Origin: a virus
Lineage: Duplodnaviria; Caudoviricetes
Virus record (IMG/VR): IMGVR_UViG_3300033388_003855
Coordinates: 1-51,545 of that record
Direction: 5' to 3' (one strand)
DNA length: 51,545 nucleotides
A program made the position numbers and the translations under genes. Every line of letters starts with the position of its first letter. Within the stretch, counting starts at the first letter, position 1. The notes under the pieces are model-generated. The model ran no database searches, was not told the DNA's origin, and saw only the letters and a program-made list of their open reading frames with translations. Shown in pieces: positions 2,413-51,545 of this stretch.

Positions 2413-2597
2413 GTCATTCTCGGTGGTTCATGTTTATAAAAAGAGCTGAAAAGGGCGTCTCTGAGCCCTTCAATCGACTTTCTTAATTCAGGGGTGGGCG
2501 GCGTTTCTGTGGTCTGGTTATCGTCCAAAACTTCCAGATTACAGGGCATGTTTGGTTTGCCGCCCCCTCTTATGATTTGAGCGGGGATTGTTTTCAT
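2409..2597 (-). CDS. Hypothetical protein
   Basis: ATGA overlaps on both sides. Confidence 0.55.
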   Translation of the reverse strand: MKTIPAQIIRGGGKPNMPCNLEVLDDNQTTETPPTPELRKSIEGLRDALFSSFYKHEPPRMT

Positions 2598-3127
2598 TTT
2601 AACCTCTGAGCTAATAGTAATTGTTTAAGAGTGTCGCTATGCAGTCTTTTGGCGGTGTAGCCATCAGTGCCCGCCTTTCCTGTAGCGCGGCAAGACGTGC
2701 CGCGCATAGCCATGTAAGTTCGGACGTCAGGGAAAACGGCAAAAGCGGCGGCAAAAGCGGCGTCGGATGCGTCGGCAGATGCGGAGCCGCTTGGGGTGTT
2801 AATATTCTCATCAGACGCGGCGTTGGCATGTGCCCAGGCGCGCATAGCTATAGTTGCAGTGCTTTCAGATGGATCGTCGATCCACTTTTCAGCTGCTTGA
2901 ATTGCTTCGATCGGTCGCTTGTCGTCCGGATATTGTTTTGCGAATATTGACTGCGTTCTATGAGCGCAGAACGCAGTCAATTTTACTGCGATCATTTTTA
3001 AAATATCGTCGTCGACAAAAAAATAGAATTCACAAAGGCACTCATCGAGCCCTTTTGTCTCTAAAATATCTAGTAGATATTTATAGCGATTTTCTGATTC
3101 TGAGGATTCAGCGTGGATTGTTTTCAT
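2594..3127 (-). CDS. Imm5-like domain, Ala-rich phage protein
   Basis: Motif YPDDKRPIEAIQAAEKW followed by Ala-rich helices. Confidence 0.55.
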   Translation of the reverse strand: MKTIHAESSESENRYKYLLDILETKGLDECLCEFYFFVDDDILKMIAVKLTAFCAHRTQSIFAKQYPDDKRPIEAIQAAEKWIDDPSESTATIAMRAWAHANAASDENINTPSGSASADASDAAFAAAFAVFPDVRTYMAMRGTSCRATGKAGTDGYTAKRLHSDTLKQLLLAQRLK

Positions 3128-3495
3128 TTTGACTTTTTCATGTTTTGAGGGTTTTTAATAAAATCTATTTTAAAAAAAGTTTTAACGCGATATTTAGCCG
3201 CCGGGATTACAATTTTTTCGTAGCCTTCTTTTTTTATTTGCTCATTATGAGCGGCGGCAATGCCTAGCACAACGTCTCCAATGCCAACTTCTTTGTCGAA
3301 TGATATCGGGAAATCATTTGTATATGTGTGACTTGTGATAGAATCCCATCGTTGAATAAATGGCAGTTTTTTTCTTATTTTTGTGAGCTTCCAGGTGATA
3401 ACTGGCCACATCATGCAGACCATATAACCCAAGATAAAGCCATAAAATAATTCCATAATTTTCTCACATAAATAAAGCCGCAGCCACCAGAGCAA
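3124..3495 (-). CDS. Hypothetical membrane protein (start probably at the internal MELFYG)
   Basis: N-terminal hydrophobic segment; ATGA overlap with the next gene. Confidence 0.55.
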   Translation of the reverse strand: MLWWLRLYLCEKIMELFYGFILGYMVCMMWPVITWKLTKIRKKLPFIQRWDSITSHTYTNDFPISFDKEVGIGDVVLGIAAAHNEQIKKEGYEKIVIPAAKYRVKTFFKIDFIKNPQNMKKSK

Positions 3496-3542
3496 GCCAG
3501 GCCGCGACGACGGTTAAAAGAATAGTGATTTGGATAAAAGTT

Positions 3543-3761
3543 TTAAGCTTTTCCATATTCAAAGCCCATTTCATTGCGGATTTGCCTATATTTGTCAGCG
3601 ACTTCTTTGTTCTCGGAGCTTTCCAGGGCTTCCAACAAAACTTCGTCGGCTTTGCGGTGAGCGTCTTGAGGCTTAAATATGTGCCGTTTATGGCTGTTTC
3701 CGTGAAGTTCAGTTAAAGCGTTCAGGCGGTTGATAAAAGCGGCGTTAAGGCGTTTTTTCAT
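3543..3761 (-). CDS. Hypothetical protein
   Basis: Upstream GAGGAG; motif DAHRKADEVLLEAL seen in small phage proteins. Confidence 0.6.
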   Translation of the reverse strand: MKKRLNAAFINRLNALTELHGNSHKRHIFKPQDAHRKADEVLLEALESSENKEVADKYRQIRNEMGFEYGKA

Positions 3762-3763
3762 GG

Positions 3764-4000
3764 TTATTTCTCCTCTTGATCGTCAAACTCAATCATGGTC
3801 GGCTCATACTTTTGAATTGTGCCGTCTGGGAGTTCAATTATTGCCACCGTGTAATTTCCGGGGCCGCTTTCAAACTCCATAAATTCGCTACCCCATTGAT
3901 GAAATTTTCCCGTCCCGATCAGTTGTCTATCTTCATGCGGGCGGGACACATTAGTTGATACGAATAATTTTACAGGTCTCATATGAATTTCTCCCAACAC
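3764..4000 (-). CDS. Hypothetical phage protein
   Basis: GKFHQWG.EF.EFESGPGNYTVAIIELPDG, a recurrent small phage protein motif. Confidence 0.65.
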   Translation of the reverse strand: MLGEIHMRPVKLFVSTNVSRPHEDRQLIGTGKFHQWGSEFMEFESGPGNYTVAIIELPDGTIQKYEPTMIEFDDQEEK

Positions 4001-4411
4001 GCCAAAGCCGGGCTGATTTCCGCAACCATCGCCGGGATTGGCTATTATACGTTTGCAAATGATTTAAAAACGGCCGTCATGTCCGCCGCATTAGTATTTA
4101 TAGGCTCGGTCTTTCCAGACCTCGACACTGAGTCCATCCCGTCCAGGTGGGCGGCTAGAATCGGTTTTATTTTCTCCCTCCTTTGCATTGCCACAAACAA
4201 GCTATTACCAGCCGCCATTATCGGCGCGCTCTTCTTCCTGATCAAGTCAGGAAAACACCGGGGTTTTACGCATAAATATAGCCTTCCCGCGCTTTGCATA
4301 ACTGCGTGGTTTTTTCTTGGCAATGTCCCCTGCGCGGCCTTTGGCGTTGGTTTGTTGGTTCATTTTGGGCTTGATAAGATTAGTCCGTTTCAGTGGAAGA
4401 ACTGGCTTTAA
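3983..4411 (+). CDS. Membrane-bound metal-dependent hydrolase (YdjM/DUF2227-like)
   Basis: H...GSVFPDLD...HRGFTH...HFGLD motifs and several TM helices. Confidence 0.8.
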   Translation: MNFSQHAKAGLISATIAGIGYYTFANDLKTAVMSAALVFIGSVFPDLDTESIPSRWAARIGFIFSLLCIATNKLLPAAIIGALFFLIKSGKHRGFTHKYSLPALCITAWFFLGNVPCAAFGVGLLVHFGLDKISPFQWKNWL

Positions 4412-5174
4412 TAATTTCTTCAAATTCAAGGCCCAAAGCCTTGCTTAATTTGACAATATTCCCAACTAACGCGGGCTCACCTTTCATCCACTTATAAATC
4501 CTTTCGGGGTCAATTCCTGCTTTTATTGCGATTTGCCGTTTATTCGTCTCTAAGGCTTTAATTCGATCCAAAACAATCTCTATTTTCAATTGTTGTTTTG
4601 GTTCGTAATATTTGCCGTTAACCACAGACGCCGCTTGTTTGACTCTGTTTTTTAGCCATCTTTTTTTGTTGTAGCATGTCCCGCAAATCGGTTTCTGATT
4701 CATCTTTTCAAGCCCTGCAATATCTACAGGAGAATATTCCATAGATTTTTCGCATTCTGAGCAATAAACCGTTTTTTTGACCTCGCGTAACTTTGCCAGC
4801 TTTTTAAGGGCACGTTTTGAGCTTTCGCTTGAGCTTCTCCGGTTCACCTCCGTGGCGGTGTATGAACGGGGCTTGCCGCGCATATTATCCGTGGCTTTTT
4901 GGGCGCTCTTTTTAAATTTTTTCTTGTGCTCAGGTGGCATATTGGCGTTTATTTCCCTTCTCTTTTCTCTTGTGCCTTGGCCGATTAATCCACGGCCATG
5001 CGTTAAAGGAATATTGAATTTAATTCTATAATCGCGCGCGGTCATATCATGGGCGAGGTTAACGTGGTTTCCTAGTCCCTTGAAAAACTTTCCGCAGATC
5101 AAACATTCCAACTTGTCGTGGGCAAGGTAGGCTTCGGCCTCTTCTATTGTTTTAAATGGCTCAGTATCGTTCAT
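4380..5174 (-). CDS. MucR/Ros-type zinc-finger protein with a second CxxC pair and a C-terminal HTH
   Basis: LECLICGKFFKGLGNHVNLAHDMTARDYRIKFNIP; C-terminal IAIKAGIDPERIYKWMKG..KLSKALG. Confidence 0.75.
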   Translation of the reverse strand: MNDTEPFKTIEEAEAYLAHDKLECLICGKFFKGLGNHVNLAHDMTARDYRIKFNIPLTHGRGLIGQGTREKRREINANMPPEHKKKFKKSAQKATDNMRGKPRSYTATEVNRRSSSESSKRALKKLAKLREVKKTVYCSECEKSMEYSPVDIAGLEKMNQKPICGTCYNKKRWLKNRVKQAASVVNGKYYEPKQQLKIEIVLDRIKALETNKRQIAIKAGIDPERIYKWMKGEPALVGNIVKLSKALGLEFEEIIKASSSTETD

Positions 5175-5177
5175 TAA

Positions 5178-5570
5178 TCACTCATCAGTTGAAGAACTGG
5201 CTTTAAGTAACTCAGGGTTATCGAATTTATTTCCGACGCGCTCAATGACGTCTGACGAATAGTCTCGAAGTGGATAAAAAAATCCTCCTCGCTTGCAACA
5301 AAACGCGCCGCGATCAAAGATGACTACTAAGCGCTCAGTGGGCCCAATGTTCACAATATCCCCCTCAAATATTTTCTCGCCCTTGGAGTCATCGCGCCCG
5401 GTGTACTGCGTCACGGTTCTCGGCTGGACTTCCTTGGCGTGCATTCCGAGCTCGTCGTTCACAAAAATTAAATGCTCGTCTTCCATGTATTTGTTGCCTT
5501 TGTTAAAAACATATCCGCCGCAAACCCACTCCGAACTACCAGATGTTTGCGCTCTAAACAAAATTTCCAT
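5178..5570 (-). CDS. YopX-family protein
   Basis: EILFRA..WVCG, TVTQYTGRDDSKGEKIFEGDIV, VGNKFDNPELL. Confidence 0.9.
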   Translation of the reverse strand: MEILFRAQTSGSSEWVCGGYVFNKGNKYMEDEHLIFVNDELGMHAKEVQPRTVTQYTGRDDSKGEKIFEGDIVNIGPTERLVVIFDRGAFCCKRGGFFYPLRDYSSDVIERVGNKFDNPELLKASSSTDE

Positions 5571-5571
5571 A

Positions 5572-5778
5572 TCAATTCCCCATCAATAGTGCGTCGGCTC
5601 CGCCAAAACTAAAGCCTAAGCCTGTTAAATCGGCCATAGGCGGGACTTTCTCGATATACTCAATCCTCCCGCCCTGTTTTAAAAATTGTCCCGTTTCTTG
5701 CTCCACAAACTTGCGATTAATGTCAGGATGGTTTTTATTCGGTTGTTTTTTTCGTCTCCCAGGTTTAAGAGTGCTCAT
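5572..5778 (-). CDS. Hypothetical protein (SutA-like FL..GG.I motif)
   Basis: GGAGG RBS; QFLKQGGRIEYI. Confidence 0.55.
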   Translation of the reverse strand: MSTLKPGRRKKQPNKNHPDINRKFVEQETGQFLKQGGRIEYIEKVPPMADLTGLGFSFGGADALLMGN

Positions 5779-5792
5779 TTAACTGCCTCCGA

Positions 5793-6233
5793 TTAAATAT
5801 TGCCATCATTTATGTCGTCCATGCTTAGGGGATATGGGATGCCGTCAGAATTGCAGGCGATTTTAGGTGACGACGGCTTTTTGGGAGGGGGAACGCGGAC
5901 AGGCGATATCCGGTCGCCAGACGCCAAAAACCACTCATCGCGGGTGTGATTTTTTCTTTCCAAAATTAAATCCATCATAAATTTTATCAATTGCTTTTTG
6001 GAAAGCCGACTTAACAGCTTTTTAATATTGCTCACCCTTTTTTCTAGCCGTTTTGGATTGCCCGCGTATGTGTCCGATATACGCGAGTGAATGCTAAACG
6101 TTTGAGCGCCTTTTATTTCTTTTTTAGTGCAGATTACAAGCTCAGCGGTATTTGCTTTAGCCTCCCGGTATCCGAATTGCAGCATAATGCTTGATATTAG
6201 CTTATCGTCTATTTTGACCTCACTTCCGTACAT
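5793..6233 (-). CDS. Hypothetical protein
   Basis: 146-aa ORF with RBS in the minus-strand operon. Confidence 0.6.
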   Translation of the reverse strand: MYGSEVKIDDKLISSIMLQFGYREAKANTAELVICTKKEIKGAQTFSIHSRISDTYAGNPKRLEKRVSNIKKLLSRLSKKQLIKFMMDLILERKNHTRDEWFLASGDRISPVRVPPPKKPSSPKIACNSDGIPYPLSMDDINDGNI

Positions 6234-6456
6234 TTTGGCTGCCCTCCTTTATCCTGCACCTCAACCGCTGAATTTCCTCTTGCTGACTCTTGATCATTTC
6301 GAGCAAGCCTTTAATGTTTTTTGGAAGAGGCCAGGGCGGTTTATTTTTTTCTTTACGATTCCATTCTGACAGCGTCGGAGTGTTGACCGAAAGAATTTCG
6401 GCCAATTCTTGATCCTCTTCCACGTCAAAAATTCTTTTTAATTTCTTAATAAGCAT
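6220..6456 (-). CDS. HTH transcriptional regulator (CI-like N-terminal domain)
   Basis: KLKRIFDVEEDQELAEILSVNTPTLSEW; first gene after a promoter. Confidence 0.75.
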   Translation of the reverse strand: MLIKKLKRIFDVEEDQELAEILSVNTPTLSEWNRKEKNKPPWPLPKNIKGLLEMIKSQQEEIQRLRCRIKEGSQNVRK

Positions 6457-6606: not shown

Positions 6607-7632
6607 ATGGCTCAAAAACTTTCCGTAACAAGAAAAAATCAAATTAAAGCGCGCTCCGCAAAGACTCGCAGGCCTATTGAGCCGGCTCACCCGGATTTAA
6701 TAGCCGCGAGCTATGGCAAAAAGCTTCAAAACGAAGTTCAGCGCGGATTTGGGCTTGTCGAAGAGTTTTTATTTCCCGTGTTGAAAAATGATGTCGAGGC
6801 ATTGACCGCGACCAGGGCCGACGCTCTGGAAGATGACGCAAATTTAGTCAACACGGTCATTGACGGCATTTTAGACCGATATTTCGGCGGGATGTATTCA
6901 GCCAGCGAGCCAAACACTGTTAAATACGCCAAGAAAGTCGCTAAAAAGCTCGTCAACCCCATGCAGGCGCAGGTTGATAAATTCAGCAAAACACAGTTTA
7001 CAAAGACGTTTAACCGCATCGCTGGCGTTGATCCTCTTCAATTTGAGCCTCAATTATCCTCTTTCCTCAATGTTGCGGGTGATCAAAACGTCAATCTGAT
7101 AGTCACTCAGAACTCTAAATACTTCGACGACATCCGGCAAATGGCCAACAATGCCTTGCGGGAGGGGAAAAGCGTTTCTGAGCTTACACAAGAGATAATT
7201 CAGCTTACAGGCACAACAGAAAGCCGGGCTAATTTAATCGCTATCGACCAAGTCCAAAAGCTCAACGCCGATCTGGAAATGGAACGGCAGAAAAACAACA
7301 ATATAACGCGCGGGATATGGAGAACGCGCCGTAATGCTCGTGTAAGATCAAAAAGTAATTCCAGCGGCTATAGCGACCACGCAGGGCTTGAAGGGGCGGT
7401 TATTGATTACAGATACCCCCCGACCACAGTTTTAAAAGGGAAGCGCGCGGGGGAACGCAACCACGCCGGGAAGGACATCAATTGTAAATGATGGTACGAC
7501 CCCGTGATAGAAGACATCACCGGGAAAACTTCCAAGGTTTTGGAAGCAGCCGAAGAAAAGACAAGACAGCTCATTTCAGCCGGGAGAATACCCGGCTATA
7601 CACTCCCAAAACGCAAGACAAAGGCGGCATAA
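6607..7632 (+). CDS. Head morphogenesis protein (MuF/SPP1 gp7 family), 341 aa if UGA 7489-7491 is decoded (candidate selenocysteine)
   Basis: RANLIAIDQVQKLN, W.T...RVR...H..LEG, HAGKDINCK-UGA-WYDPV matching the family's HPG..NCRC...P; frame stays open to TAA 7630-7632. Confidence 0.85.
7501..7524 (+). promoter_or_regulatory. Candidate bacterial SECIS hairpin
   Basis: CCC-GTGAT [AGAAGAC] ATCAC-c-GGG; loop starts 17 nt after the UGA; G at loop position 2. Confidence 0.6.
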
Positions 7633-7633
7633 A

Positions 7634-8665
7634 ATGGCATATCAAAAGATTTACTTAGGGAAAAATTTCACGTTCGTCCGTCCCGCGTCAGGCGAGAAAG
7701 AATTCGATGTCTTGAATTACCACGAAAATCCATTCGATTTTCTGACTTGCGAAATCATCAATTCGACTTCTTACCCGCCGCCAAAAGCGTTTGTAAGCGA
7801 TTCGGAGGCCGGAAGGATTAAATTAAGCGGATTTGACCAAATTCCGCAGACTACACCTCTTGAAATTTTTGTGCAGGGTGTTGTCTCTCAGAAAACGGTA
7901 AACATTACCGAAGAAAAAAAAGTTTTGCTTTCAGATAAAACACTGGCAGCCGCCAAGGCCGCGCCCGGCGTCGCTATATCAGCCACTTGGGCGGGAATTA
8001 AAAAATACGCTATGATTTTCATAGGGCTGTCAATTCTGTTTTATATGATCAGTGGAACACAGGCGGGGGACACCGTTAACCGCGTTTGGTCGTGGTTTAA
8101 CGCCGCGCGAGTGGTGGAGATGGCCAGGGATTTTGACGCGCGGATAGTGACCAACAAACACCCGGTTTATGAGTCGTCCGGCTTTGTTTATGTCAACGCT
8201 CGGTATAAAGAAAAGTACGGCGACAAAGGAGACCTAAAGAAACTTTATCATTTTGTCGGCAACAGAGCCGACGACAATGACGGGAAAATGGGATTTTTTG
8301 TAATGGCCGACGTGGCGTTGGATACAACCGGGCACCCGTTGAAAATGACCAAAGGAAACGCCGAGGACTATTGCGACGAGATAGGCGGGACACTGCTAAA
8401 TCGCGCTGAATTGGAGACTTATTTGGCGCAACAATACGCGGGCGTGGACAATTTCTTTTGGCCGATTATACGCCGATCATACGTTGCGGAATGGTCAAGC
8501 AAGAGTTTTTCTTGGATGTTTGGCCGCTCTTGGCTTTACTTGAAAGAAGACGGCGAAAACCCGACGGAAAAAACGCCCCAAAATGACTTTGTGGTGGCAA
8601 GCAATGGAATTGAGGCCGCGTTCCGGTGCGGCTTTCCTGAGACATTCTATAAGAGGGCTGAATAA
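7634..8665 (+). CDS. Membrane-anchored protein with a C-terminal C-type-lectin/FGE-like domain
   Basis: TM segment near aa 126-142; AEDYCDEIGGTLLNRAELE...EWS...AFRC. Confidence 0.55.
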   Translation: MAYQKIYLGKNFTFVRPASGEKEFDVLNYHENPFDFLTCEIINSTSYPPPKAFVSDSEAGRIKLSGFDQIPQTTPLEIFVQGVVSQKTVNITEEKKVLLSDKTLAAAKAAPGVAISATWAGIKKYAMIFIGLSILFYMISGTQAGDTVNRVWSWFNAARVVEMARDFDARIVTNKHPVYESSGFVYVNARYKEKYGDKGDLKKLYHFVGNRADDNDGKMGFFVMADVALDTTGHPLKMTKGNAEDYCDEIGGTLLNRAELETYLAQQYAGVDNFFWPIIRRSYVAEWSSKSFSWMFGRSWLYLKEDGENPTEKTPQNDFVVASNGIEAAFRCGFPETFYKRAE

Positions 8666-9219: not shown

Positions 9220-9544
9220 ATGGTTTGCGGCGTGTTGTTTATTTTTATTTATGCCCGGCGTCGCTTTCGGTTCGTGGGTTGACAGTATAGCCAATGCGGC
9301 GAATACATACGACCAAATTACAAATAAATATTTTTATGCCTCGGTCGGCTTGCTGATGATAACGCTTCCCGCCCTGGGAAGAATTAGGCGGGGCGGCCAA
9401 ATGCGACCGGCTATGGCCAAGGCTGTGGCCGGGCTTATTCATACCGTCAATTTTGTATGTTTGACGTTTCTGGTTATCCATTTCGCACCAGAAACGTCGA
9501 GCATTCTCGACTGGTTTCTGGACGTTTTTGGAAGGATTTTTTAA
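9137..9544 (+). CDS. Small membrane protein (holin-like; start uncertain)
   Basis: Three hydrophobic segments; stop is coupled to the protease start. Confidence 0.5.
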   Translation: MKSTLRKTRGRLLSPLWLLKNLKATPREWFAACCLFLFMPGVAFGSWVDSIANAANTYDQITNKYFYASVGLLMITLPALGRIRRGGQMRPAMAKAVAGLIHTVNFVCLTFLVIHFAPETSSILDWFLDVFGRIF

Positions 9545-10752
9545 TGGCTAAAAATTGCACAAATTGCGGAGACTGCAAGCACCTTTGCGGCGAGAATATG
9601 CGGGCGGATTCGTTCGACATAACCGGCGATTTAGCCAGCAAAATAGACAAAAACGGCTATTTGAAGGTTATGGGAACGGTGACGAGTGTCGGCGTTTTTA
9701 GCTATACGCGACCGGACGGAACAGTAGTAAGAGAATTCAGGCCGCCGGAAGAGGTGTTTAAAGCGGACTCCATAGAGACATTAAAAAATGCTCCCATCGC
9801 CGCCGGAGATAATCACCAAAAAACAATGATGGGCTTGCAGGAGCCGAACGACGCGGCAAACTTAACTTATGAAGGCGTTATTGGCTCAGACATAGTCAAG
9901 AACGCCGCAGGCGACGGTTTAGACGCGCCGGTGATCGTTTATCACCCGCAGGCAATAGAGGACATAGCAACCAAGAAAAGATTACATTTAAGCGCGGGGT
10001 ATACTCTCCGCGAACTAGAACCAACATCAGGCGTTTACAAGGGGCAGCCCTACGACGCTATTCAACGGGGCATTACTTACGGTCATGTGAGTATTGTCGA
10101 ACGTGGCCGCGCCGGTGAGCGTTGCCAAATCCGGGCGGACAGCGCCCAAAATCAAGAATCTAAACAGGAAAAAACTATGGCAAAAATGAAAATTCCGGCG
10201 CTGCAAGTCAAAAGCGGAGAAAGTATTATTTTCCGCGCCGACAGCCTGGAAGTGGAAGAAACACCCGAAATAACGGCGCTGTTGTCTCACAGGACACAGC
10301 TTAGCGTCGAGGTAAAGAAAGCCTTGACTCGCGCCGATACCGCCGAGGGAGAGCTTTCAGTATTGAAGAAAGACAACGAGGCGCTTAAGAAGGAAACAAA
10401 AGGCAGTATCAGCCCGGAGAAATACCGAGCGGACATGGACGAAAGCCTGGGCTTGATGGCTAAGCTGAAAGAGCTTGGAATTGATGTGATGAAAGAAGAC
10501 AAGCCCGATCTTTCACCCAAAGCGCTTAAAATGGCCATCATCAAGACGATTTATCCAAAAGAGGAGATGCGAGCCGACGCCAGCGATGGCGAGATTACAG
10601 GGCTGATGAAGGGCATTGACAACGACTGGAAGCACCGTGTTTCGATGGTCAAAACGAACGAAGGACGGAAATATTTTAGTGAGAACGGAGCCGCCGGAAA
10701 TGATTTGGCGCTCAACGATCAGGGATACCCCGAAACTATGAAAACAGCTTAA
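9544..10752 (+). CDS. Prohead protease/scaffold (DUF2213-like)
   Basis: GVFSY...REFRPPEEVF...LSAGY...YDAIQRGI..HVSIVERGRAG; coiled-coil C-terminus; start taken at MAKNC (TAATG). Confidence 0.88.
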   Translation: MAKNCTNCGDCKHLCGENMRADSFDITGDLASKIDKNGYLKVMGTVTSVGVFSYTRPDGTVVREFRPPEEVFKADSIETLKNAPIAAGDNHQKTMMGLQEPNDAANLTYEGVIGSDIVKNAAGDGLDAPVIVYHPQAIEDIATKKRLHLSAGYTLRELEPTSGVYKGQPYDAIQRGITYGHVSIVERGRAGERCQIRADSAQNQESKQEKTMAKMKIPALQVKSGESIIFRADSLEVEETPEITALLSHRTQLSVEVKKALTRADTAEGELSVLKKDNEALKKETKGSISPEKYRADMDESLGLMAKLKELGIDVMKEDKPDLSPKALKMAIIKTIYPKEEMRADASDGEITGLMKGIDNDWKHRVSMVKTNEGRKYFSENGAAGNDLALNDQGYPETMKTA

Positions 10753-10763
10753 AGAGGCAAAAT

Positions 10764-11519
10764 ATGCAAACAAGTGTTTCCGCCCAGAGCGGTCAATGGT
10801 ACGTCGGGCAAATCACCCAGCCGGGTGATATTGACGACAAATCGGCGCTGAATGAAGACACGTCAGCTATGAAAATTGGGATGGCGGTTATAGCTGGAAC
10901 CGATCCTGAAACGCAGATTAAGAAGCCCGTCGCCTCATTTTCATTCGATAATTTTCAGGGCATTATACACAACGCCTATGGCTTGTCTGAAAAACGGCTG
11001 CTAACAGGCGAGATTGACATTATAACCAACCAGCGCGCCAGCTTCCTAAGAAAAGGCTATATGGCTGTGCTTTGCGGCAGTCTATTTGCCGGAATCACGA
11101 TAGTTAAAGGCGAGGACGTTTATTGCTCATATAACATCTATGGAGACACTGCGCAGTGGTCATTCAGGAATACTGACGACCTGTTAAGCGGTGGTGACGT
11201 TGGTTTCGTTGTCGATACAGCGGTGTGTACAGTGACGGATTCGACGCACGGGCTTACAGTCGGTCAGACCATCGTTGTTTCCGACGCGGCTGGTTTGCCG
11301 GGCATTCACGGCGCGCACGTCATATTGACCACCGCCGACGCGAATACTTTCACGTTTGCCACTGACCAGGCAGATGATACCGGGGACACGCTCGACTATA
11401 CGACAGGCGGGTCGAGTAAAGTCCCTGCCGTTTTCATGCAGGGTGGAGTTATCGCCGCCGGCGCGACCACCATTTTGGAAATAAAAATCAACGCGGATAT
11501 GAAAATAGGCGTTAGCTAG
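10764..11519 (+). CDS. Capsid decoration/cement protein with an inserted HGL-repeat domain
   Basis: Position between protease and MCP; LRKGYMAV motif. Confidence 0.7.
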   Translation: MQTSVSAQSGQWYVGQITQPGDIDDKSALNEDTSAMKIGMAVIAGTDPETQIKKPVASFSFDNFQGIIHNAYGLSEKRLLTGEIDIITNQRASFLRKGYMAVLCGSLFAGITIVKGEDVYCSYNIYGDTAQWSFRNTDDLLSGGDVGFVVDTAVCTVTDSTHGLTVGQTIVVSDAAGLPGIHGAHVILTTADANTFTFATDQADDTGDTLDYTTGGSSKVPAVFMQGGVIAAGATTILEIKINADMKIGVS

Positions 11520-11540
11520 TAGCTAGGAGTAAAAAATAAT

Positions 11541-12737
11541 ATGTATCAAGATATTGATTATGCAATCAAATTACTTGCCACCAACCCGGCGTTTATGGCT
11601 GGGTTTGGAGCGACTAGCCCGGCGACGCAAAAGCAGGGGCTTGGCATGTTGCGCGAAAAGTTTAGAGAGGTTCATTATTCGGGGCTGGCCGCCGAGCAGC
11701 CGATTTTTCAGGGCTTATATCAGCGCGCTGACTCTATCGTCGATGTGACGCGAAATGAGGCTTATATTCGTGACTCCGTGGCGAAACGTAAACTCGAAAT
11801 CAGAGCGGACGCCAACGACGGTTTGATTTTCCAGCCGGATTTAAGACAGCTTGAGGCCAGAATTTTCGAGACAAAATATAGACCTCGTGGAATGTGGCGG
11901 GGGGTTATGCCCCAGGCCGGGGTCGTCCGAGGGGTTAAATATGTAGAGTACAGGATATTCGACAGGCGTGGAGAGGTTAAGCCGATCACAACCGGAACAG
12001 TCAAGGACATCCCTTATGTCGGGGTTTCAGGAAAAGCTTATCAGAACTATATCATTGATAAAGCTCTGGGCTATCGATACACGCAGATGGAATTGGACGC
12101 CGCCGCTTTTGCCGGGGCTCCGCTTGACATGAGACTCCGCGACGCCGTCGTGTCATCTTATGAAGAAGCTCAGGATAATGTGGCTTTCGGCGGTGACACC
12201 GAGTTTGACCTTGAAGGTTTGATTAATCACACAGGCGTTCCGAACATTCAGGCCGCCGCCGCCGCCGCTGGCTCAAATGCTCGACCATGGGCCGGCGCTG
12301 ACAAAGTCCCGGATGAGATTGTAGCCGATATTCGCGGGATGGTTACGGCTATCGCCGTGGCGTCCGGGGAGAACTACAACGCCGACAGGACACAATTTAT
12401 TTTGCTGGTTCCTCGCGTGCCTTATGATGCGCTAAATCAAAGGATGGCTGCCGGAACAGACACGACCATTCTGCAATTTGTTTTGAACCAGAAAAAGTAT
12501 GGCATCGCTGATATCAAAGTCTTGCCTCAATTAGCTGGCCAAGGCACCGGCTCAACTAATTTGGCCATCATGCTACCGATTATGGACAGGGAGGTAATAG
12601 AATTTTACACCTCCGACGCCATAATTTGGGAGCCGCCTCAACTGGTTGGCTTCGATATTCGTTTTCCGTCTCGACAAAGAGTTGGCGGCGTTGTTATCCG
12701 CTACCTTATCGCTATGACTCAACTTTACGGAATATAA
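11541..12737 (+). CDS. Major capsid protein (DUF2184-like, HK97 fold)
   Basis: GYRYTQMELDAA, AFGGD...EGLINH, GGVVIRYL.A...GI C-terminus. Confidence 0.9.
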   Translation: MYQDIDYAIKLLATNPAFMAGFGATSPATQKQGLGMLREKFREVHYSGLAAEQPIFQGLYQRADSIVDVTRNEAYIRDSVAKRKLEIRADANDGLIFQPDLRQLEARIFETKYRPRGMWRGVMPQAGVVRGVKYVEYRIFDRRGEVKPITTGTVKDIPYVGVSGKAYQNYIIDKALGYRYTQMELDAAAFAGAPLDMRLRDAVVSSYEEAQDNVAFGGDTEFDLEGLINHTGVPNIQAAAAAAGSNARPWAGADKVPDEIVADIRGMVTAIAVASGENYNADRTQFILLVPRVPYDALNQRMAAGTDTTILQFVLNQKKYGIADIKVLPQLAGQGTGSTNLAIMLPIMDREVIEFYTSDAIIWEPPQLVGFDIRFPSRQRVGGVVIRYLIAMTQLYGI

Positions 12738-22220: not shown

Positions 22221-22422
22221 ACCGCTTTAAAAACGCGGCTCGTTGCCAAGCGTGAGAGTTTTCGAGAAGCCATTCCAGCATAGGCAGAACGGTGTCAAGT
22301 TTAATTTTATGACCGGCAACGGCGCGGGTAATCGTGTTCTCAGTCGCGCCGACAAATTTAGCAAACTCGACGTTTGTTTTGTGGCCGGTGAGGTTTTTTA
22401 GGCTTTTGATTATTTTTTTCAT
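22207..22422 (-). CDS. HTH regulator
   Basis: NVEFAKFVGATENTITR; AAGGAG RBS. Confidence 0.65.
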   Translation of the reverse strand: MKKIIKSLKNLTGHKTNVEFAKFVGATENTITRAVAGHKIKLDTVLPMLEWLLENSHAWQRAAFLKRFKSP

Positions 22423-22425
22423 GTT

Positions 22426-22468
22426 CTCCTTAAAGCCGGGCTAAGCCCGGCGGGTTGGTTATTTTTTC
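22426..22468 (-). repeat. Conserved intergenic hairpin+RBS element, copy 1 (copy 2 at 41452-41495)
   Basis: GCCGGGC-TAA-GCCCGGC core with shared flanks. Confidence 0.8.
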
Positions 22469-33957: not shown

Positions 33958-34344
33958 ATGTTAAAAAAACTTTTAGAGGACGCTATAAAGAAACTTCTTA
34001 CAGGAGATAGCAGCGCGGATAAATCCAATGAGCCTGAATTAGGCGGCGCAATAGGACGGTACGCGATTGTTCGCAGTTATAACGAGGGAGTTAACGCCGG
34101 AGTGGTCATATCATATAATAAAGATATGATTGAATTAAGCGATTGCCGCCGCTTATGGCGGCATTGGCCAAAAGATAAAAAAAAGAGCTGGTACGAAGGC
34201 GTGGCCATTTCTGGGCTTGATGAAAAATCGCAAATATCAATAGCAGTGCCGACTAAAATTATCGTTGAAAAATATTCTATAACAATATGCTCAAAAGAGG
34301 CCGAGCAATCAATCCGGGAGTTTGCGTCGCATGAGCAAGCATAA
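33958..34344 (+). CDS. DUF6948-like phage protein
   Basis: IVRSYNEGVNAG...L.DCRRLW.W...VA..G. Confidence 0.7.
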   Translation: MLKKLLEDAIKKLLTGDSSADKSNEPELGGAIGRYAIVRSYNEGVNAGVVISYNKDMIELSDCRRLWRHWPKDKKKSWYEGVAISGLDEKSQISIAVPTKIIVEKYSITICSKEAEQSIREFASHEQA

Positions 34345-34516
34345 AAATATTGGCTCTGGCTATGGCGGTGGCTCTGGCTCTGGATCTGGCTCTGGCTCTG
34401 GCTCTGGCTATGGCGATGGCTCTGGCGGTGGCTATGGCGGTGGCTATGGCGATGGCTCTGGCGGTGGCGGTGGCTCTGGCGATGGCTATGGCGATGGCGA
34501 TTTATCATGCGCTTAA
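34331..34516 (+). CDS. Gly/Ser/Tyr/Asp low-complexity protein encoded by a GGC-NNT hexamer repeat
   Basis: Tandem ggctct/ggctat/ggcgat/ggcggt units at ~34352-34501. Confidence 0.6.
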   Translation: MSKHKNIGSGYGGGSGSGSGSGSGSGYGDGSGGGYGGGYGDGSGGGGGSGDGYGDGDLSCA

Positions 34517-34926
34517 CCACGGAACAATTCTCCGCGATGCTGGAAAACTCGCATTGCTCTATAAAGGACGAAGGCAAGCCCGAAACGCGCCGAGAACGCA
34601 AAGTAAGCAAGATTGAAAGACTGGTTCATTGGGAGCTGAAAACAGACCCAAACGTGGAGCTTTTGGAGACTCAGCCGCGCTTTGAGATTGTGCCGGGATT
34701 CAGGCGGAACGGGAAGAAATATCAAGCCGTTCATTATACGTCGGATTTCAGGATCATTGAAAACGGTCGAGAAATCGTCGTTGAAGTGAAGTCTGAGGGC
34801 GTCTTGAGGGCGAACGTAAAGAGTTATCCTATGCGCCGCAAACTGTTTTTAAAAGCATTCCCGGAGCTTGTTTTCCGGGAGATTATTTTTATGGACAATG
34901 GGGAAAGAGTTGTGAGGGAGTATTAA
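34507..34926 (+). CDS. DUF1064-family putative endonuclease
   Basis: LETQPRFEI...YTSDF...VVEVKS...Y..RRKLF. Confidence 0.8.
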   Translation: MRLTTEQFSAMLENSHCSIKDEGKPETRRERKVSKIERLVHWELKTDPNVELLETQPRFEIVPGFRRNGKKYQAVHYTSDFRIIENGREIVVEVKSEGVLRANVKSYPMRRKLFLKAFPELVFREIIFMDNGERVVREY

Positions 34927-38569: not shown

Positions 38570-39424
38570 ATGAAAAAAACTATTTGTTACTACCATAAAA
38601 TCGATTTAGATGGCAAATGTAGCGCGGCTATTGTGCGGCGAAGATATCCAGATTGTGAGCTGATAGGCGTTGATTATCCAGACAGGCCGGATTTTGAGAG
38701 GATAGAGAACGGGGACAGGGTTATTGTGGTTGATTTTAGCTTTGCGCTCTGTGACATGGATAAGCTTTTTTCGGGCGGGCTTTTGGTCTGGATCGATCAT
38801 CACGAATCAGCGTTAAATGTGGCTTATCTGGGAAAATATGCCGATTGTGCGGGGGCGCGCAAGGTCGGCAAAGCAGGATGTGAGCTTACTTGGGAGTATT
38901 TTTTCCCGGAAGAGCCCATGCCGGAGGCTGTGAGGTTGCTTGGTCGCTATGACGTTTGGGACAAATCAAACATTGAGGTATGGGAAAAAGAAATTTTGCC
39001 TTTTCAATATGGAATGAGACTAACAGAATGGGCACCTGATAGCGACGCATGGCTAGACATGCTTGCTCATAATGATTATGCCGAAACTCCGCTCGATCAT
39101 GGATTGACAGTTCTGGCTTATGAAGGCCAAAGAAACGCCACTTACTCCGCCGAAATGGCTTTTCCTGTCGAGTTTGAAGGGTATGATTCCTGGGCGATTA
39201 ATAAAGCTCTTAGCAATTCTAAAATATTTGATACCCTTGACCCTTTTGGCGAAAGGCCATTATATATTTTATTTAACTATAAAAAAGGAGTCTGGAAATA
39301 TAGTCTATATTGTAATCCAGACAGCGGAATTGATGTTTCCAAAATAGCGGTTAAATATGGCGGAGGAGGACACGCCGGAGCCGCTCGTTTTAAATCCGAT
39401 AAATACTTACTCAAAGAGGTGTGA
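38570..39424 (+). CDS. DHH/DHHA1 phosphoesterase
   Basis: H..DLDG, VDF, WIDHH, GGGGHAGAA. Confidence 0.9.
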   Translation: MKKTICYYHKIDLDGKCSAAIVRRRYPDCELIGVDYPDRPDFERIENGDRVIVVDFSFALCDMDKLFSGGLLVWIDHHESALNVAYLGKYADCAGARKVGKAGCELTWEYFFPEEPMPEAVRLLGRYDVWDKSNIEVWEKEILPFQYGMRLTEWAPDSDAWLDMLAHNDYAETPLDHGLTVLAYEGQRNATYSAEMAFPVEFEGYDSWAINKALSNSKIFDTLDPFGERPLYILFNYKKGVWKYSLYCNPDSGIDVSKIAVKYGGGGHAGAARFKSDKYLLKEV

Positions 39425-39427
39425 CGC

Positions 39428-39688
39428 GTGGATATAGTCAAAGGTAATCGCGTTAAATGCGATAGCATTGGATGCGAATGGAAGAAAAATATTTCATTTT
39501 CAGAAGTCCCCTTATGGCACAATAAGCTTTGTCCATTTTGTGCCGGAAGCGTTATTATAAATGATAATGATCTGCTTATCTGGAAAAGTTTAAATGTTTT
39601 TGTGCAGTCATTTAAAAGCATCGCAGATGTGCCGGGCATCCCAAAAAAAAATATTATCATCGATACGTCACTTTTTGGAAATCGTTAA
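39428..39688 (+). CDS. Zinc-ribbon hypothetical protein
   Basis: KCDSIGCEW...W.NKLCPFC. Confidence 0.6.
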   Translation: MDIVKGNRVKCDSIGCEWKKNISFSEVPLWHNKLCPFCAGSVIINDNDLLIWKSLNVFVQSFKSIADVPGIPKKNIIIDTSLFGNR

Positions 39689-41152: not shown

Positions 41153-41448
41153 TGCTTTTTATCTCTATGCAGTTTTTTGAATAAAGGTGATCTTTTTTTT
41201 GTCACCGGATCCTCTTGGGCTGGCTCAGATTGCAAAGTTTTTAAGATTTTGAGTCGTTTGGTTTTTGAATGCGCTTCGGCGTAAGCTACCAGCGCGCGCG
41301 CCATATTAGTCAAAGTCGGGCCGGCTGTTTCATTGTTCAGATTGCGGCCTGTGGCCTCCGAGAAGCCGAAGGCCTTGGCCGTTTGGAGGGCGTTTTTAAA
41401 GCCGTGAAGGTCTTTTAATCGAGTGAATATCTTTTTTTCTTTTTCCAT
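41149..41448 (-). CDS. HTH regulator
   Basis: Start at MEKEKK after AAGGAG; NALQTAKAFGFSEATGRNL. Confidence 0.6.
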   Translation of the reverse strand: MEKEKKIFTRLKDLHGFKNALQTAKAFGFSEATGRNLNNETAGPTLTNMARALVAYAEAHSKTKRLKILKTLQSEPAQEDPVTKKRSPLFKKLHRDKKQ

Positions 41449-41451
41449 TGG

Positions 41452-41495
41452 CTCCTTAAGCCGGGCTAAGCCCGGCGAGGGTTGATTTATTTTTT
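41452..41495 (-). repeat. Conserved intergenic hairpin+RBS element, copy 2
   Basis: Near-identical to 22426-22468. Confidence 0.8.
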
Positions 41496-43281: not shown

Positions 43282-43355
43282 GGAAACGTGTAGTTTGCGG
43301 AAAAACGTCCGGCCTTACCGGATCGCTCACCGGTTCGAATCCGGTCACGTTTCCA
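43282..43355 (+). tRNA. Atypical tRNA or tRNA-like element, identity undetermined
   Basis: Canonical T arm ACCGG-TTCGAAT-CCGGT; acceptor GGAAACGTG/CACGTTTCC; D arm GTTT/AAAC; anticodon arm TCCGG-CCTTA-CCGGA. Confidence 0.65.
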
Positions 43356-47460: not shown

Positions 47461-48939
47461 ATGAAATTTGACGACCGCATAGTAGACCAGCACGGCCGGC
47501 CGTTATTCCGTGCCGATGGCTATTACAACGACGCGACCGGATACGGCGGAGCCGACGACAGCATTAAAAACACGTCATTTCTGCCCGAAGTTCCGATGTC
47601 ACAAACGGAATTGACCGCGCTCTACAAGACGTGGCTCATTCGCCGTGGCGTCGATATTCCCATAGATGACAGGCTTGGAGACGGCATAGAGTTTTTGACG
47701 AATGACGACGACTCGGAAGGGCGCAAAAAACAACTCGAAGAGCTTGAAACGATCTTTGACGACCTGGGACTTATAGACCATTTAATGCAGGGCGAAAAGT
47801 GGGAGTCGGTCTATGGAGGGGGGCTTTTATATTTTGAGTATGGCGACGACCCTAAATTTGAACTAAGAGACTCTCAACGCGGAATCCCCTTCAAAGTTTG
47901 GGCGGTTGATCGCTGGTCGGCTATCCCAACATCTTATTATCAAGATTTCATTCACGGCCTGGATCATCCCAAAATCGGCGAGCCTGAAACCTACAACGTC
48001 GTTTTATTCACAACCGGCTACAGCAGGATGCCCATTGTCCACGAATCACGAATTATTCGACTCGGCGGATTACCTCTTCCTCCCCGTGAGCTTGCCGCTA
48101 ATTTGATGTGGGGGCAGCCTATAGTCGAATTGGTCAGCGAGATATGCAAGTATTTCCAAATATCTCTTAAAGCCATGGCGGACACTTTCCAGGATTTCAA
48201 CTGGAAAACTCTTGAGATAGAGAATTTACCGGACTTGATAGCGAGCAATGAAGAGGCGGACTATGAATCAATTATCAGGCAAGCCGCGATGGCGGCGGGG
48301 ATGTGGCATAATCAAGCCATAGGTCTCCACTCTTCCGGTTTTAAGCTGGAAAAACACACAACCACAGTGACGGGCTTAACGGACATGGGCGAGCTGATGT
48401 CTAACTTTGTAGCCGCCTCGTTTGGTATTCCAGACAGCCGTTTCTTTTCAGCAAAGGGCGGCGCGCTGGCCGGTTCGTCTACTCAGAGCGATGAACGACA
48501 CTATCACAAGCGACTCAGGCGCGAGAGAAAGCGCATAGACACGCCCAGAATCCAACAAATGCTTTGGTTGTTGGGCTATGATCCAAAAGACTACCCGTTC
48601 CGCTTTCCTCCACTTGAAGAGCCGACAGAGAAAGAAAAACTTGAGGCTGATGATTTGCAAGCGGATATTGACGCCAAATATATTGGCGCTCAGGTTGTCG
48701 CCCCGGAAGAAATCGCAGTTTCCAGATTCAGCAAACCAGAACCAGTCAGGAGGCAATATATAATTGATTTCGACGCGCGCAAGGAGATGACCGACGACGA
48801 GGACACCAACCCCGACGAAGAAGAAAAAAACCCGCCTAAAAACGACCCAGAAAGCAAAGAAGACCGCGCCGACATGGCAGAGGAGGAACTAGAAGTTGAA
48901 GACGTTTGGGAGCTGGTGGTTATAGAGGAGGACGAATAA
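47461..48939 (+). CDS. Portal protein (DUF1073-like)
   Basis: LY.TWLIRR.VDIP.DD, YGG, VHESRII, GIP.SRFF, F.FPPL; follows TerL. Confidence 0.9.
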   Translation: MKFDDRIVDQHGRPLFRADGYYNDATGYGGADDSIKNTSFLPEVPMSQTELTALYKTWLIRRGVDIPIDDRLGDGIEFLTNDDDSEGRKKQLEELETIFDDLGLIDHLMQGEKWESVYGGGLLYFEYGDDPKFELRDSQRGIPFKVWAVDRWSAIPTSYYQDFIHGLDHPKIGEPETYNVVLFTTGYSRMPIVHESRIIRLGGLPLPPRELAANLMWGQPIVELVSEICKYFQISLKAMADTFQDFNWKTLEIENLPDLIASNEEADYESIIRQAAMAAGMWHNQAIGLHSSGFKLEKHTTTVTGLTDMGELMSNFVAASFGIPDSRFFSAKGGALAGSSTQSDERHYHKRLRRERKRIDTPRIQQMLWLLGYDPKDYPFRFPPLEEPTEKEKLEADDLQADIDAKYIGAQVVAPEEIAVSRFSKPEPVRRQYIIDFDARKEMTDDEDTNPDEEEKNPPKNDPESKEDRADMAEEELEVEDVWELVVIEEDE

Positions 48940-51545
48940 TGGAAAAAACTAAGAAAATAGGCATTCCAAGGGCTCTTCTTGACAATTTAAGCGGGAAAAT
49001 CGCGACTCAGGTCAAAGCAGAGATCATTCAAGAGCTGATGACAGAGCAGAAAATCAAACTAGCTCCGCAGCAGCTTGAGACTTTCGCGAAAATGGCGTCT
49101 AAATATATAGCCGTCAAAATTGATTACCCGAAAATTATCAAGTCTGCGGTCGATCAAATACCCGTTCCGCAGGACGGCAGAGACGGCGTTAATTTAGTCT
49201 GGAATGAAGTAGTCAGGGCGGATGTTATCGACGGCGTCTCCGAGCTTGTGCCGGCGGGTAAAGACGGCGAGCCAGGTCAGGACGGCGAAAGCTACAAATT
49301 GCAGTCAAAAGACCGCGCCGACATAGCTGAGCTTGTCAAAGAGACCATGACCGCGCCGGGCATTCAAGAGCTTGTCAAAGAGCTTGCAAACGCCCGCGTC
49401 TTTGTTCCCTTGAGACGCTTTAAAGACGAGCTGAAAGGCATTCAGGAGGCGTTGAATAAGATCAAGAAACGTCCCATAAACGCCGGCATTTCAGGCCGGG
49501 ACATGGTCGACGAGATAACACAGGCAATTGGGTCTGGTTGGCTATCAGATACAAAAGCGATTTGGGGACAAATCACCGGGACGCTTTCGGATCAATTAGA
49601 TTTACAGGCGGAGCTGGACGGCAAAGAGGATGCTTTTACTAAGAATACGGCGTTTAATAAAGATTTTGGTTCCACGGGCGGAACCGTCGCAGAAGGCGAT
49701 GACGCGCGTTTATCAGACGACAGAGACCCCACCCAACACGATCTTGACGGAGCCAAACACGCGGGTATAACTGGGACTCAAGACAATTTCATGAGCCTGG
49801 ACGCGTCCGGACTTCCGAAAGACTCCGGGGACAAAGCGGCCGACTTTGAGCCAGCCCTTGGCTATACGCCCGCCGACGACTCATTGGTTGTTCATTTAGC
49901 CGGGGACGAGACCATAACGGGCGTCAAAGACTTTCAGGCAGGACTTGAGGCCAAGCAAATCAAATATACTCCGCAGGTAACCCCGCCAGCTCATAGCGAA
50001 GGGCTTTTGTATTATGATGATACGGAAAAAGCTTTAACTCTATATAACGACCGGACAAACGTCGCGCTGAATATAGGCCGCGAGCTTTGGACGAGGTCAT
50101 GCAATAATACTGGCGTCGGGATAGCCGATGGCCGCGTGGTCTATATTAATGGAGTTGATAGTGGTTGCCCTACCATTGAGATAGCACAGCCGGACGAGTT
50201 TGATAAATCGCGGATTATCGGCATGGCGACCGAGGACATAGCGTCGGGCCAGCAGGGAGAAGTCACAAGATTCGGCCATGCAAAAGGGCTGAACACGGCG
50301 GGTCTAAGCGTCGGCCCGGCCTATCTTGACCATGACGGAACATTAACAAATGATGTTCCCACCGGCGCGCATTTCTATATTTTGGTCGGGACTATTTTAG
50401 TTGTGGATGCCAGCGACGGGATTGTGTCAGTTAACCCATATATTAGCGAATTAACAGCAGAGGTTACGGACACAAACGGATTTTCAACGGCAATGAGAGC
50501 GGCCACAACGCTTTCCTTTGTTGAAGGGACACGAACTTCTGCCATTGCGCCGACAGGCTCACATTTCCATTATTATATCGGCGGTCGCTCTGTTATGGTT
50601 GAGTCTTCTCCGGACATTGTGATCGCTGATTCCGAAGGGATGCACGTCATTTATTTTGATGACAAGTCCGGGGCTTTGTCTATGATATATCAGCCGACGA
50701 ACGAGCAAATAGACGTCCTCATAAGGACAAAATGCCTTGTCCACTTCATTTATTGGGACGCGACAAATAAAAAGCAAATATATTTTGGAGACGAACGCCA
50801 TGGTCTTTCGATGGCTCCTGACACGCATTCTTATTTGCATTTCACGCGCGGCGCTCAATTTTTGCAGGGCTTAGGCTTGGGTGATTTTGTCAAAGACGAT
50901 GGCGACGACGACGAGGACGCCCAATTCAGCATGGCGGCGGGCTTTATCTCCGACGAAGACCTCGTAACGTCTATTCCGGCCGTCGTCAGCACTGTCGGCC
51001 TCCCTATATATTATTTGGACGGAGCAAGCGCAAATTTAAGACAAATAGACAACGCCGGATTCTCAGTTTTGGACGATGTAACGGCGGGCGTAGGCGCAAC
51101 TGGAAGGCTCGTTTTTAACGAGTTCACGGGCGGGGCTTGGCAGTTGACCACTGTTGGCGATGGCGATTTTGTAAATCATCACGTGTTCGCATTTAACGGA
51201 CTTGATGGCGAAAGGCAGACATGTTCGATCATGGGGCAAACGTCGCATGACAAGAAAAACGACGCGAAAAAAGCTATTCCCACAGAGATTTCAGACCTTT
51301 TAATTCAGTTGCCGTTTGCGGAAATGGTGCCGATAGGCTCTATTATTTTCGAGACTAAAAACGGCTTTGGCAACGCTGTTAAGGCCAGGGTTGTTGAAAT
51401 CGACCCCGGCGTTATGTATCAAGACTGGCGTTCAACTGAGCTGGCTCAAGGGGCACCGCCGAGCGACCACGGAAACTTGACGGGTTTAATTGACGACGAT
51501 CATTCGCAATATCAACTTTTAGCAGGCCGTTCCGGAGGCCAAGTT
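48939..51545 (+). CDS. N-terminal part of the ~1197-aa fibre-like protein (continues at 1-1101); absent from the ORF track because it has no stop within the window
   Basis: TAATG coupling to portal; MEKTKKIG...; collagen-like GKDGEPGQDG, WGQITGTLSDQ.DLQ..LD.K, VVHLAGDETITGVK.F. Confidence 0.85.
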   Translation, partial: MEKTKKIGIPRALLDNLSGKIATQVKAEIIQELMTEQKIKLAPQQLETFAKMASKYIAVKIDYPKIIKSAVDQIPVPQDGRDGVNLVWNEVVRADVIDGVSELVPAGKDGEPGQDGESYKLQSKDRADIAELVKETMTAPGIQELVKELANARVFVPLRRFKDELKGIQEALNKIKKRPINAGISGRDMVDEITQAIGSGWLSDTKAIWGQITGTLSDQLDLQAELDGKEDAFTKNTAFNKDFGSTGGTVAEGDDARLSDDRDPTQHDLDGAKHAGITGTQDNFMSLDASGLPKDSGDKAADFEPALGYTPADDSLVVHLAGDETITGVKDFQAGLEAKQIKYTPQVTPPAHSEGLLYYDDTEKALTLYNDRTNVALNIGRELWTRSCNNTGVGIADGRVVYINGVDSGCPTIEIAQPDEFDKSRIIGMATEDIASGQQGEVTRFGHAKGLNTAGLSVGPAYLDHDGTLTNDVPTGAHFYILVGTILVVDASDGIVSVNPYISELTAEVTDTNGFSTAMRAATTLSFVEGTRTSAIAPTGSHFHYYIGGRSVMVESSPDIVIADSEGMHVIYFDDKSGALSMIYQPTNEQIDVLIRTKCLVHFIYWDATNKKQIYFGDERHGLSMAPDTHSYLHFTRGAQFLQGLGLGDFVKDDGDDDEDAQFSMAAGFISDEDLVTSIPAVVSTVGLPIYYLDGASANLRQIDNAGFSVLDDVTAGVGATGRLVFNEFTGGAWQLTTVGDGDFVNHHVFAFNGLDGERQTCSIMGQTSHDKKNDAKKAIPTEISDLLIQLPFAEMVPIGSIIFETKNGFGNAVKARVVEIDPGVMYQDWRSTELAQGAPPSDHGNLTGLIDDDHSQYQLLAGRSGGQV
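51432..51545. repeat. Terminal direct repeat, copy 2
   Basis: Identical to 1-114. Confidence 0.97.

Follow-up and report, generated by a model that had tools for sequence, protein, structure and literature searches.

A candidate selenocysteine codon at the conserved cysteine of a MuF-type head protein gene in an uncultured tailed phage

Why should the gene of a phage head protein stop precisely at a cysteine codon that its relatives keep, when the sequence behind the stop runs on in the same frame up to the next gene? The question is raised by a MuF-type head-morphogenesis gene (the family of Mu F and SPP1 gp7) in the IMG/VR record IMGVR_UViG_3300033388_003855 (Duplodnaviria; Caudoviricetes), a complete virus assembled from a metagenome. 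The window analysed here is this whole record of 51,545 bp; it carries a 114-nt terminal direct repeat, and the phage itself measures ~51.4 kb. Selenocysteine (Sec) inserted at the in-frame UGA is, with a probability of about 0.5, the best single explanation of the locus, and a virion selenoprotein is presented here as the leading hypothesis, not as a finding. The features concerned are the following.

6607..7488, + strand: body of the MuF/SPP1-gp7-type head-morphogenesis gene, 294 codons, ending in ...GKDINCK (open reading frame (ORF), PF04233, PHROG 324, BFVD)
7489..7491, + strand: in-frame TGA at the second cysteine of the CxC motif, candidate Sec (or cysteine) codon (alignment with relatives)
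7492..7632, + strand: C-terminal tail, 46 in-frame codons plus TAA (family consensus WxEPVIEDLTGK..LEAAE.KT..LI..GRIPGY.LPK)
7500..7524, + strand: hairpin 1, candidate bacterial selenocysteine insertion sequence (bSECIS), upper stem GUGAU/AUCAC, loop AGAAGAC, lower stem CCC/GGG
7529..7546, + strand: hairpin 2, CTTCCAA-GGTT-TTGGAAG, a perfect 7-bp stem with a GGUU loop
7634..8665, + strand: following gene, 343 aa, which begins 1 base past the TAA of the tail and has no Pfam or PHROG match

The ORF opens at ATG 6607 and runs through ...HAGKDINCK into the TGA, beyond which the same frame continues as WYDPVIEDITGKTSKVLEAAEEKTRQLISAGRIPGYTLPKRKTKAA and closes at a TAA (7630-7632), the 46 codons between being free of stops and frameshifts. 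Termination at the TGA gives a product of 294 residues and read-through one of 341. The gap between the TGA and the next ATG, at 7634, is 142 nt, and in two homologous loci of the cysteine type (L001 and L085) the next ATG likewise stands directly after the full-length stop. The ORF, TGA, TAA, gap and both hairpins are all present in the sequence where the original prediction, made from the letters of the DNA and a list of its ORFs, had placed them, and its assignment of the product to the MuF/gp7 family was borne out. The PF04233 domain (Phage_Mu_F/SPP1 gp7) scores 33.6 bits with a residue in place of the TGA and 29.1 bits on the 294-aa product without tail, slightly under the gathering cut-off of 29.6 bits, which is therefore reached only with the TGA read through. 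The match to PHROG 324 ('head morphogenesis') has an E-value of 1.4e-45, and NCBIfam TIGR01641 stays below its cut-off (18-21 bits vs 39.65). The AlphaFold (AF2) model of the protein has a predicted local distance difference test score (pLDDT) of 82, and a fold search of BFVD returned 87 matches at E<=0.001 (best E 8e-11), headed by head-morphogenesis and minor capsid proteins; sequence and fold searches of the PDB gave no informative match.

The TGA column was followed through the relatives of the protein. Among 5.8 billion proteins searched there were 39 hits, namely the window's own 294-aa product and 38 relatives, and cysteine occupies the column in 34 of the 38 (motifs CKC, CRC, CFC, CMC, DKC and DRC), as expected from the claim that the UGA replaces the second cysteine of a CxC motif. 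All but one of these 34 cysteine forms (33) are intact at the N-terminus and 301-341 aa long, and most share the same tail. Two other relatives end exactly before the column: P0023 (294 aa, from a 25,378-bp contig of JGI) with ...GKDINCK, and P0025 (315 aa, from an 11,138-bp contig of ENA) with ...GKDIHCK. The window protein, P0023 and P0025 are mutually ~72% identical, and the cysteine form P0003 is 73% identical to the first, 80% to the second and 77% to the third. In a quick tree of 39 rows these four proteins were grouped with P0031 at a Shimodaira-Hasegawa-like approximate likelihood ratio test (SH-aLRT) support of 98, without resolution inside the group and with terminal branches of 0.2-0.3 changes per site. 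Given such long branches and ~72% identity, a stop at this codon has either persisted or arisen repeatedly. The P0031 protein (303 aa) itself ends in ...GKDIL, two residues short of the first cysteine, as would fit a stop at the first cysteine codon, and P0027 (314 aa) diverges after ...GNDIT; each of the two could be due to the end of a contig, to a frameshift or to a different stop.

Nucleotide loci tell the same column in codons. Among 163 fetched loci, 48 carry the motif, with TGT or TGC at the column in 45 and an intein-like insertion in the other 3. Past ...GxDIQ, the three interrupted loci (L025 from ~3505, L081 from ~3787 and L119 from ~3287) read CFPGESKV... or CFPAGTMISTLDGEKP..., and the insertion looks, from its sequence, like an intein (Hint domain); its position at the CxC motif suggests that the motif is functionally critical. 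The motif is also present in distant MuF proteins, many of which end just ~5-15 residues past it. Cultured phages offer only proteins below 26% identity to the one studied here, and a search among short proteins for tail ORFs called separately found only P0041, a fragment of a cysteine form.

The tail behind the TGA is conserved to the same degree as the body. Its identity to the tail of P0003 is 80.4% (37/46), compared with 72.0% (211/293) for the body. When a column was counted as conserved at >=80% among 18 cysteine-type relatives, the window kept 23 of the 25 conserved columns of the tail, the two changes (D for E and I for L) being conservative, and 134 of the 144 of the body. A codon-usage score derived from the phage's own genes is 8.1 for the tail in frame 0, and the two other frames give -15.3 and -5.9; 8.1 was reached by 0 of 520 off-frame windows, and in-frame windows average 12.3 (standard deviation 4.8). 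The downstream frame is held under protein-level constraint, and the 46 codons are conserved and coding-like, as the original reading needs. A tail left untranslated beyond a small part of the window's branch would be expected to decay, which leaves a choice between decoding of the UGA and a very recent mutation, and hits on the same codon in three lineages make the latter unlikely. Translation of the UGA at 7489-7491 by one route or another (Sec, cysteine and near-cognate read-through taken together) is in our judgement probable.

Of these routes, Sec insertion is the favoured one. In this reading, the gene would encode a MuF-type minor head protein of 341 residues, and SelA, SelB, SelC and SelD of the host would decode the UGA as Sec, giving C-K-U in place of the C-K-C of the family. 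SelB and Sec-tRNA(Sec) would be brought to the ribosome by a stem-loop within the ~20-60 nt that follow, namely hairpin 1, perhaps acting jointly with hairpin 2, and termination at the UGA would leave the 294-residue form without the second cysteine and the tail, so that two isoforms would be expected, in a ratio set by the selenium supply. In E. coli, 30-40% is reported for Sec recoding (PMC4513850), from which both the 294- and the 341-residue form would be expected. Sec as the inserted residue, the hairpin as its SECIS and the ability of the host to make Sec are all three inferred. On roughly even odds, a small clade of uncultured tailed phages would then have, in its virion module, the gene of a selenoprotein, namely a minor head protein of MuF type that carries a C-x-U site.

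The locus shares with bacterial selenoprotein genes a UGA at a conserved cysteine, a conserved downstream frame, a stem-loop within 16-37 nt and homologues that appear truncated, and these likenesses are criteria of the Cys/Sec-pair strategy (PMC13188914). It differs from them in being encoded by a phage and in specifying a virion-associated protein with no known redox role; in addition, the SECIS candidate is no more distinctive than the background, and the Sec machinery of the host is a presumed one. The same paper gives criteria for a bSECIS, namely a loop of 3-9 nt, an upper stem of 4-16 bp, a G in the first two loop positions, a distance of 16-37 nt from the UGA and a minimum free energy <= -7.5 kcal/mol (PMC13188914), which were applied with our own implementation and not with bSECISearch. 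Hairpin 1 consists of a 5-bp upper stem, a C/C mismatch (or bulge) and 3 G-C pairs, and it lies inside these loose limits, with a loop of 7 nt that starts 17 nt past the UGA, a G at position 2 and -9.3 kcal/mol. The GGUU loop of hairpin 2 is more typical than the loop of hairpin 1; it starts 44 nt past the UGA, outside the usual range of 16-37 nt. Both hairpins together reach -17 kcal/mol (z -1.74), and 8 of 200 shuffles do equally well. The folding energy is not above chance.

The points that weigh against Sec concern the hairpin, the relatives, the host and the protein itself. The limits within which hairpin 1 falls also admit 258 of the 1784 TGA trinucleotides of the window (14.5%) and 5 of 35 sites in cysteine-type homologues, and hairpin 1 alone has a z of -0.85, with 34 of 200 shuffles as stable. 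Three cysteine-type loci (L085, L001 and L002) show equally stable folds in this position, since the genetic code itself makes the codons for Pro-Val complementary to those for Thr-Gly. In hairpin 1, the G of the loop precedes an A and not the usual G or U. No Rfam family was hit at gathering score in the whole window, and nothing relevant appeared in 7400-7700 at E<=10. The 'SECIS-like' hairpin of the original prediction is therefore present and passes loose criteria, but it says little. As to the relatives, TGA/Cys pairs of the kind that the prediction had hoped to find are suggested by two diverged proteins, P0023 and P0025, at the level of their protein ends; scans of viral, metagenome and genome contigs turned up no DNA encoding P0023, P0025 or P0003. 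The grouping of the quick tree was not recovered with support in a careful tree of 13 rows. When TGA was read through in a hidden Markov model (HMM) scan of the 163 loci, not one had a TGA at the column; nor does any of 147 distant representatives end at it, and the feature is therefore restricted to a single small group. ARAGORN found no tRNA-Sec or tRNA(ReC) on the phage, and no sel genes were present among the phage ORFs scanned. A host bearing selABCD is presumed; prophage relatives, sought in species-representative genomes by MuF, capsid or portal protein, were not found. To our knowledge, MuF proteins have no known redox chemistry, and nearly all of the selenoproteins known to us are redox enzymes.

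The foremost alternative is a true truncation, in which a nonsense mutation at the cysteine codon (TGY to TGA, a single step) would leave only a 294-residue MuF protein, with the tail as a recent relic. Such a loss would agree with the use of TGA as a normal stop in this phage, with the indistinct hairpin and with the lack of Sec machinery among the phage ORFs and tRNAs scanned; moreover, Pfam still sees the domain without the tail, at 29.1 bits, and a long tail is not universal, many distant MuF proteins ending soon after CxC. However, the tail is conserved like the body, coding-like and free of stops and frameshifts, and an intact, conserved tail that is not translated would have to be very young. 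With P0023 and P0025 ending at the same codon at ~72% identity, three recent independent hits would be needed, and the cysteine supposedly lost is one that 34 of 38 relatives keep and that also belongs to the CxC motif of distant MuF proteins. We hold truncation to be unlikely. The same change of TGY to TGA might be an artefact, due to a mistake in sequencing or assembly or to an uncommon defective variant caught by the assembly, as the source is a metagenome-assembled virus record; but the column is also where proteins of two separate origins (JGI and ENA) end, and an error would be needed at one base in three assemblies, which makes an artefact very improbable, the least of the alternatives.

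Two further explanations accept that the UGA is translated. In programmed or leaky read-through, a near-cognate tRNA (Trp, possibly Cys or Arg) would decode the UGA, with the short form as the major and the long form as the minor product. This would keep the tail under selection without Sec machinery and would supply two forms of a virion protein in a fixed ratio, a logic which is described for viruses in PMC8310308. Left unexplained by it is why the stop lies exactly on the invariant cysteine in three lineages, where the long form would mostly carry Trp. In addition, a U after UGA is not known as a leaky context in E. coli, which also counts against near-cognate decoding, and we consider it quite unlikely. 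The remaining route is SECIS-dependent insertion of cysteine by a host tRNA(ReC)/SelC*, of which the product would be an ordinary CxC protein. It draws on the same sequence evidence as Sec (the cysteine column, the ends of P0023 and P0025 and the conserved tail), and tRNA(ReC), which occurs in Desulfobacterota, Armatimonadota and others, decodes UGA as cysteine with a downstream SECIS (PMC13582414, citing Vargas-Rodriguez 2018). Since this tRNA is less widespread than the canonical Sec system, being present in ~13-17% of the genomes studied in PMC13582414, and since the phage carries none, cysteine insertion is a slim possibility, ranking just after near-cognate decoding.

Other ways of decoding the TGA were tried and rejected. 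A crude set of 82 non-overlapping ORFs ends in TAA 54 times, in TGA 24 times and in TAG 4 times, with many ATGA overlaps, and TGA is an ordinary stop elsewhere in the phage, in line with the prediction that there is no genome-wide recoding; reassignment of TGA throughout the genome (codes 4 / 25) is rejected with these 24 of 82 ORFs, and table 4 merely lengthens or fuses ORFs across gene boundaries. A frameshift at AAA-TGA was discarded, as the zero frame alone matches the tail of the homologues, and so was a split gene restarting at GTG 7504, which has no Shine-Dalgarno-like sequence upstream. A second read-through candidate at 38570-39688 (+ strand) proved to be two adjacent genes in the same frame, with apparent read-through under table 4 only: a DHH/DHHA1 phosphoesterase ends naturally after GGGH... 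with TGA, and GTG 39428, preceded by AAGAGG, opens the gene that follows. A suppressor tRNA was likewise rejected, the sole call of ARAGORN being a tRNA-Lys(CTT). This call (43284-43354, + strand) has the anticodon loop GCCUUAC, with no U at position 33, and the Rfam tRNA model had no hit at gathering score; the tRNA gene is doubtful or unusual.

A literature search for phage selenoproteins, from which supplements, whose family lists could name phage-like families, were left out, found no paper on one, in agreement with the original prediction, which was not aware of a characterised structural selenoprotein in phages. In the text available to us, a 2021 review of recoding names viral selenoproteins only for molluscum contagiosum and fowlpox viruses (PMC8310308), and a 2026 review of prokaryotic selenoproteomes contains none of the words 'phage', 'virus', 'viral' and 'prophage' (PMC13188914). 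The glutathione peroxidase selenoproteins of these two poxviruses are likewise encoded by a virus and reliant on the Sec machinery of the host, and the fowlpox SECIS lies within the coding region (PMC8310308). They differ in belonging to eukaryotic viruses that have captured cellular redox enzymes, whereas the gene studied here is the phage's own and belongs to its structural module. Among phages, a likeness is found in the A1 protein of Qbeta, where read-through of the UGA closing a shorter protein yields a virion protein with a C-terminal extension. In Qbeta, however, Trp is inserted, and no conserved cysteine belongs at that position, whereas here the stop lies on an invariant cysteine inside a conserved domain.

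In comparison with the Mu F and SPP1 gp7 proteins, the protein has the PF04233 domain, the PHROG 324 match, the predicted fold and the C-terminal CxC...P motif in common. It differs from them in that a UGA replaces the second cysteine and in that its gene lies away from the portal gene, and its family has a tail of its own, ~35 residues long, past the C-terminus of most distant MuF proteins. In phages that package DNA by portal and terminase, MuF proteins form part of the head, and they are often fused to injected effector domains (PMC5512222). The word 'cysteine' is absent from the available text of that paper, and no function has been assigned to the MuF CxC motif in the literature searched, as far as its texts were available.

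Genes in the neighbourhood encode a DUF2213 protein, a cement protein and a major capsid protein, as well as a neck terminator and an E217-type baseplate hub. Two intervals of the record are of note here.

9457-12737: scaffold/protease-like gene, cement protein and major capsid protein, downstream of the MuF-type gene
47461-48939: portal gene (PF06381)

The MuF-type gene is the first of a + strand block and stands behind a block of - strand genes; it is not adjacent to the portal gene, a 1208-codon ORF and the - strand block being placed between the latter and 6607. The oppositely oriented block, directly upstream at 2594-6456, encodes an Imm5-like protein, a ROS/MucR plus helix-turn-helix (HTH) regulator and YopX on the - strand, and a YdjM-like membrane protein inside it is encoded on the + strand. 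The ORF of ~1208 codons directly follows the portal gene and spans the ends of the record (48906-51545 into 115-1101, + strand, with the terminal repeat removed), and it has only weak Pfam matches (Phage_cement_2 and BppL_N). Elsewhere in the record, a tandem 12-nt repeat, with 10 copies in register, occupies 34333-34518 and encodes a Gly/Ser/Tyr-rich run (GSGYGGGSGSGSG...). This repeat sits in a 64-codon ORF on the + strand (34322-34516), which is overlapped by a 177-codon ORF on the - strand. A 43-nt element occurs at 22410-22452 and again at 41435-41477 with 74% identity; both copies end in a G+C-rich palindrome (GCCGGGCTAAGCCCGGC) beside gene starts, and the element may be a shared terminator or regulatory site.

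If the Sec reading is true, bacterial viruses would have their first selenoprotein here, and Sec recoding would be extended to bacteriophages. Gene callers shorten such genes, as in P0002, P0023 and P0025, and a Sec codon in a phage would serve as a marker of host range, pointing to a host that uses Sec. The long and short forms of the head protein would be determined by the host's selenium status. The conserved CxC of MuF proteins would be a chemically active (redox or metal) site, and for the widespread MuF/gp7 family as a whole the motif would be a functional centre, which fits the putative inteins inserted at it in distant relatives.
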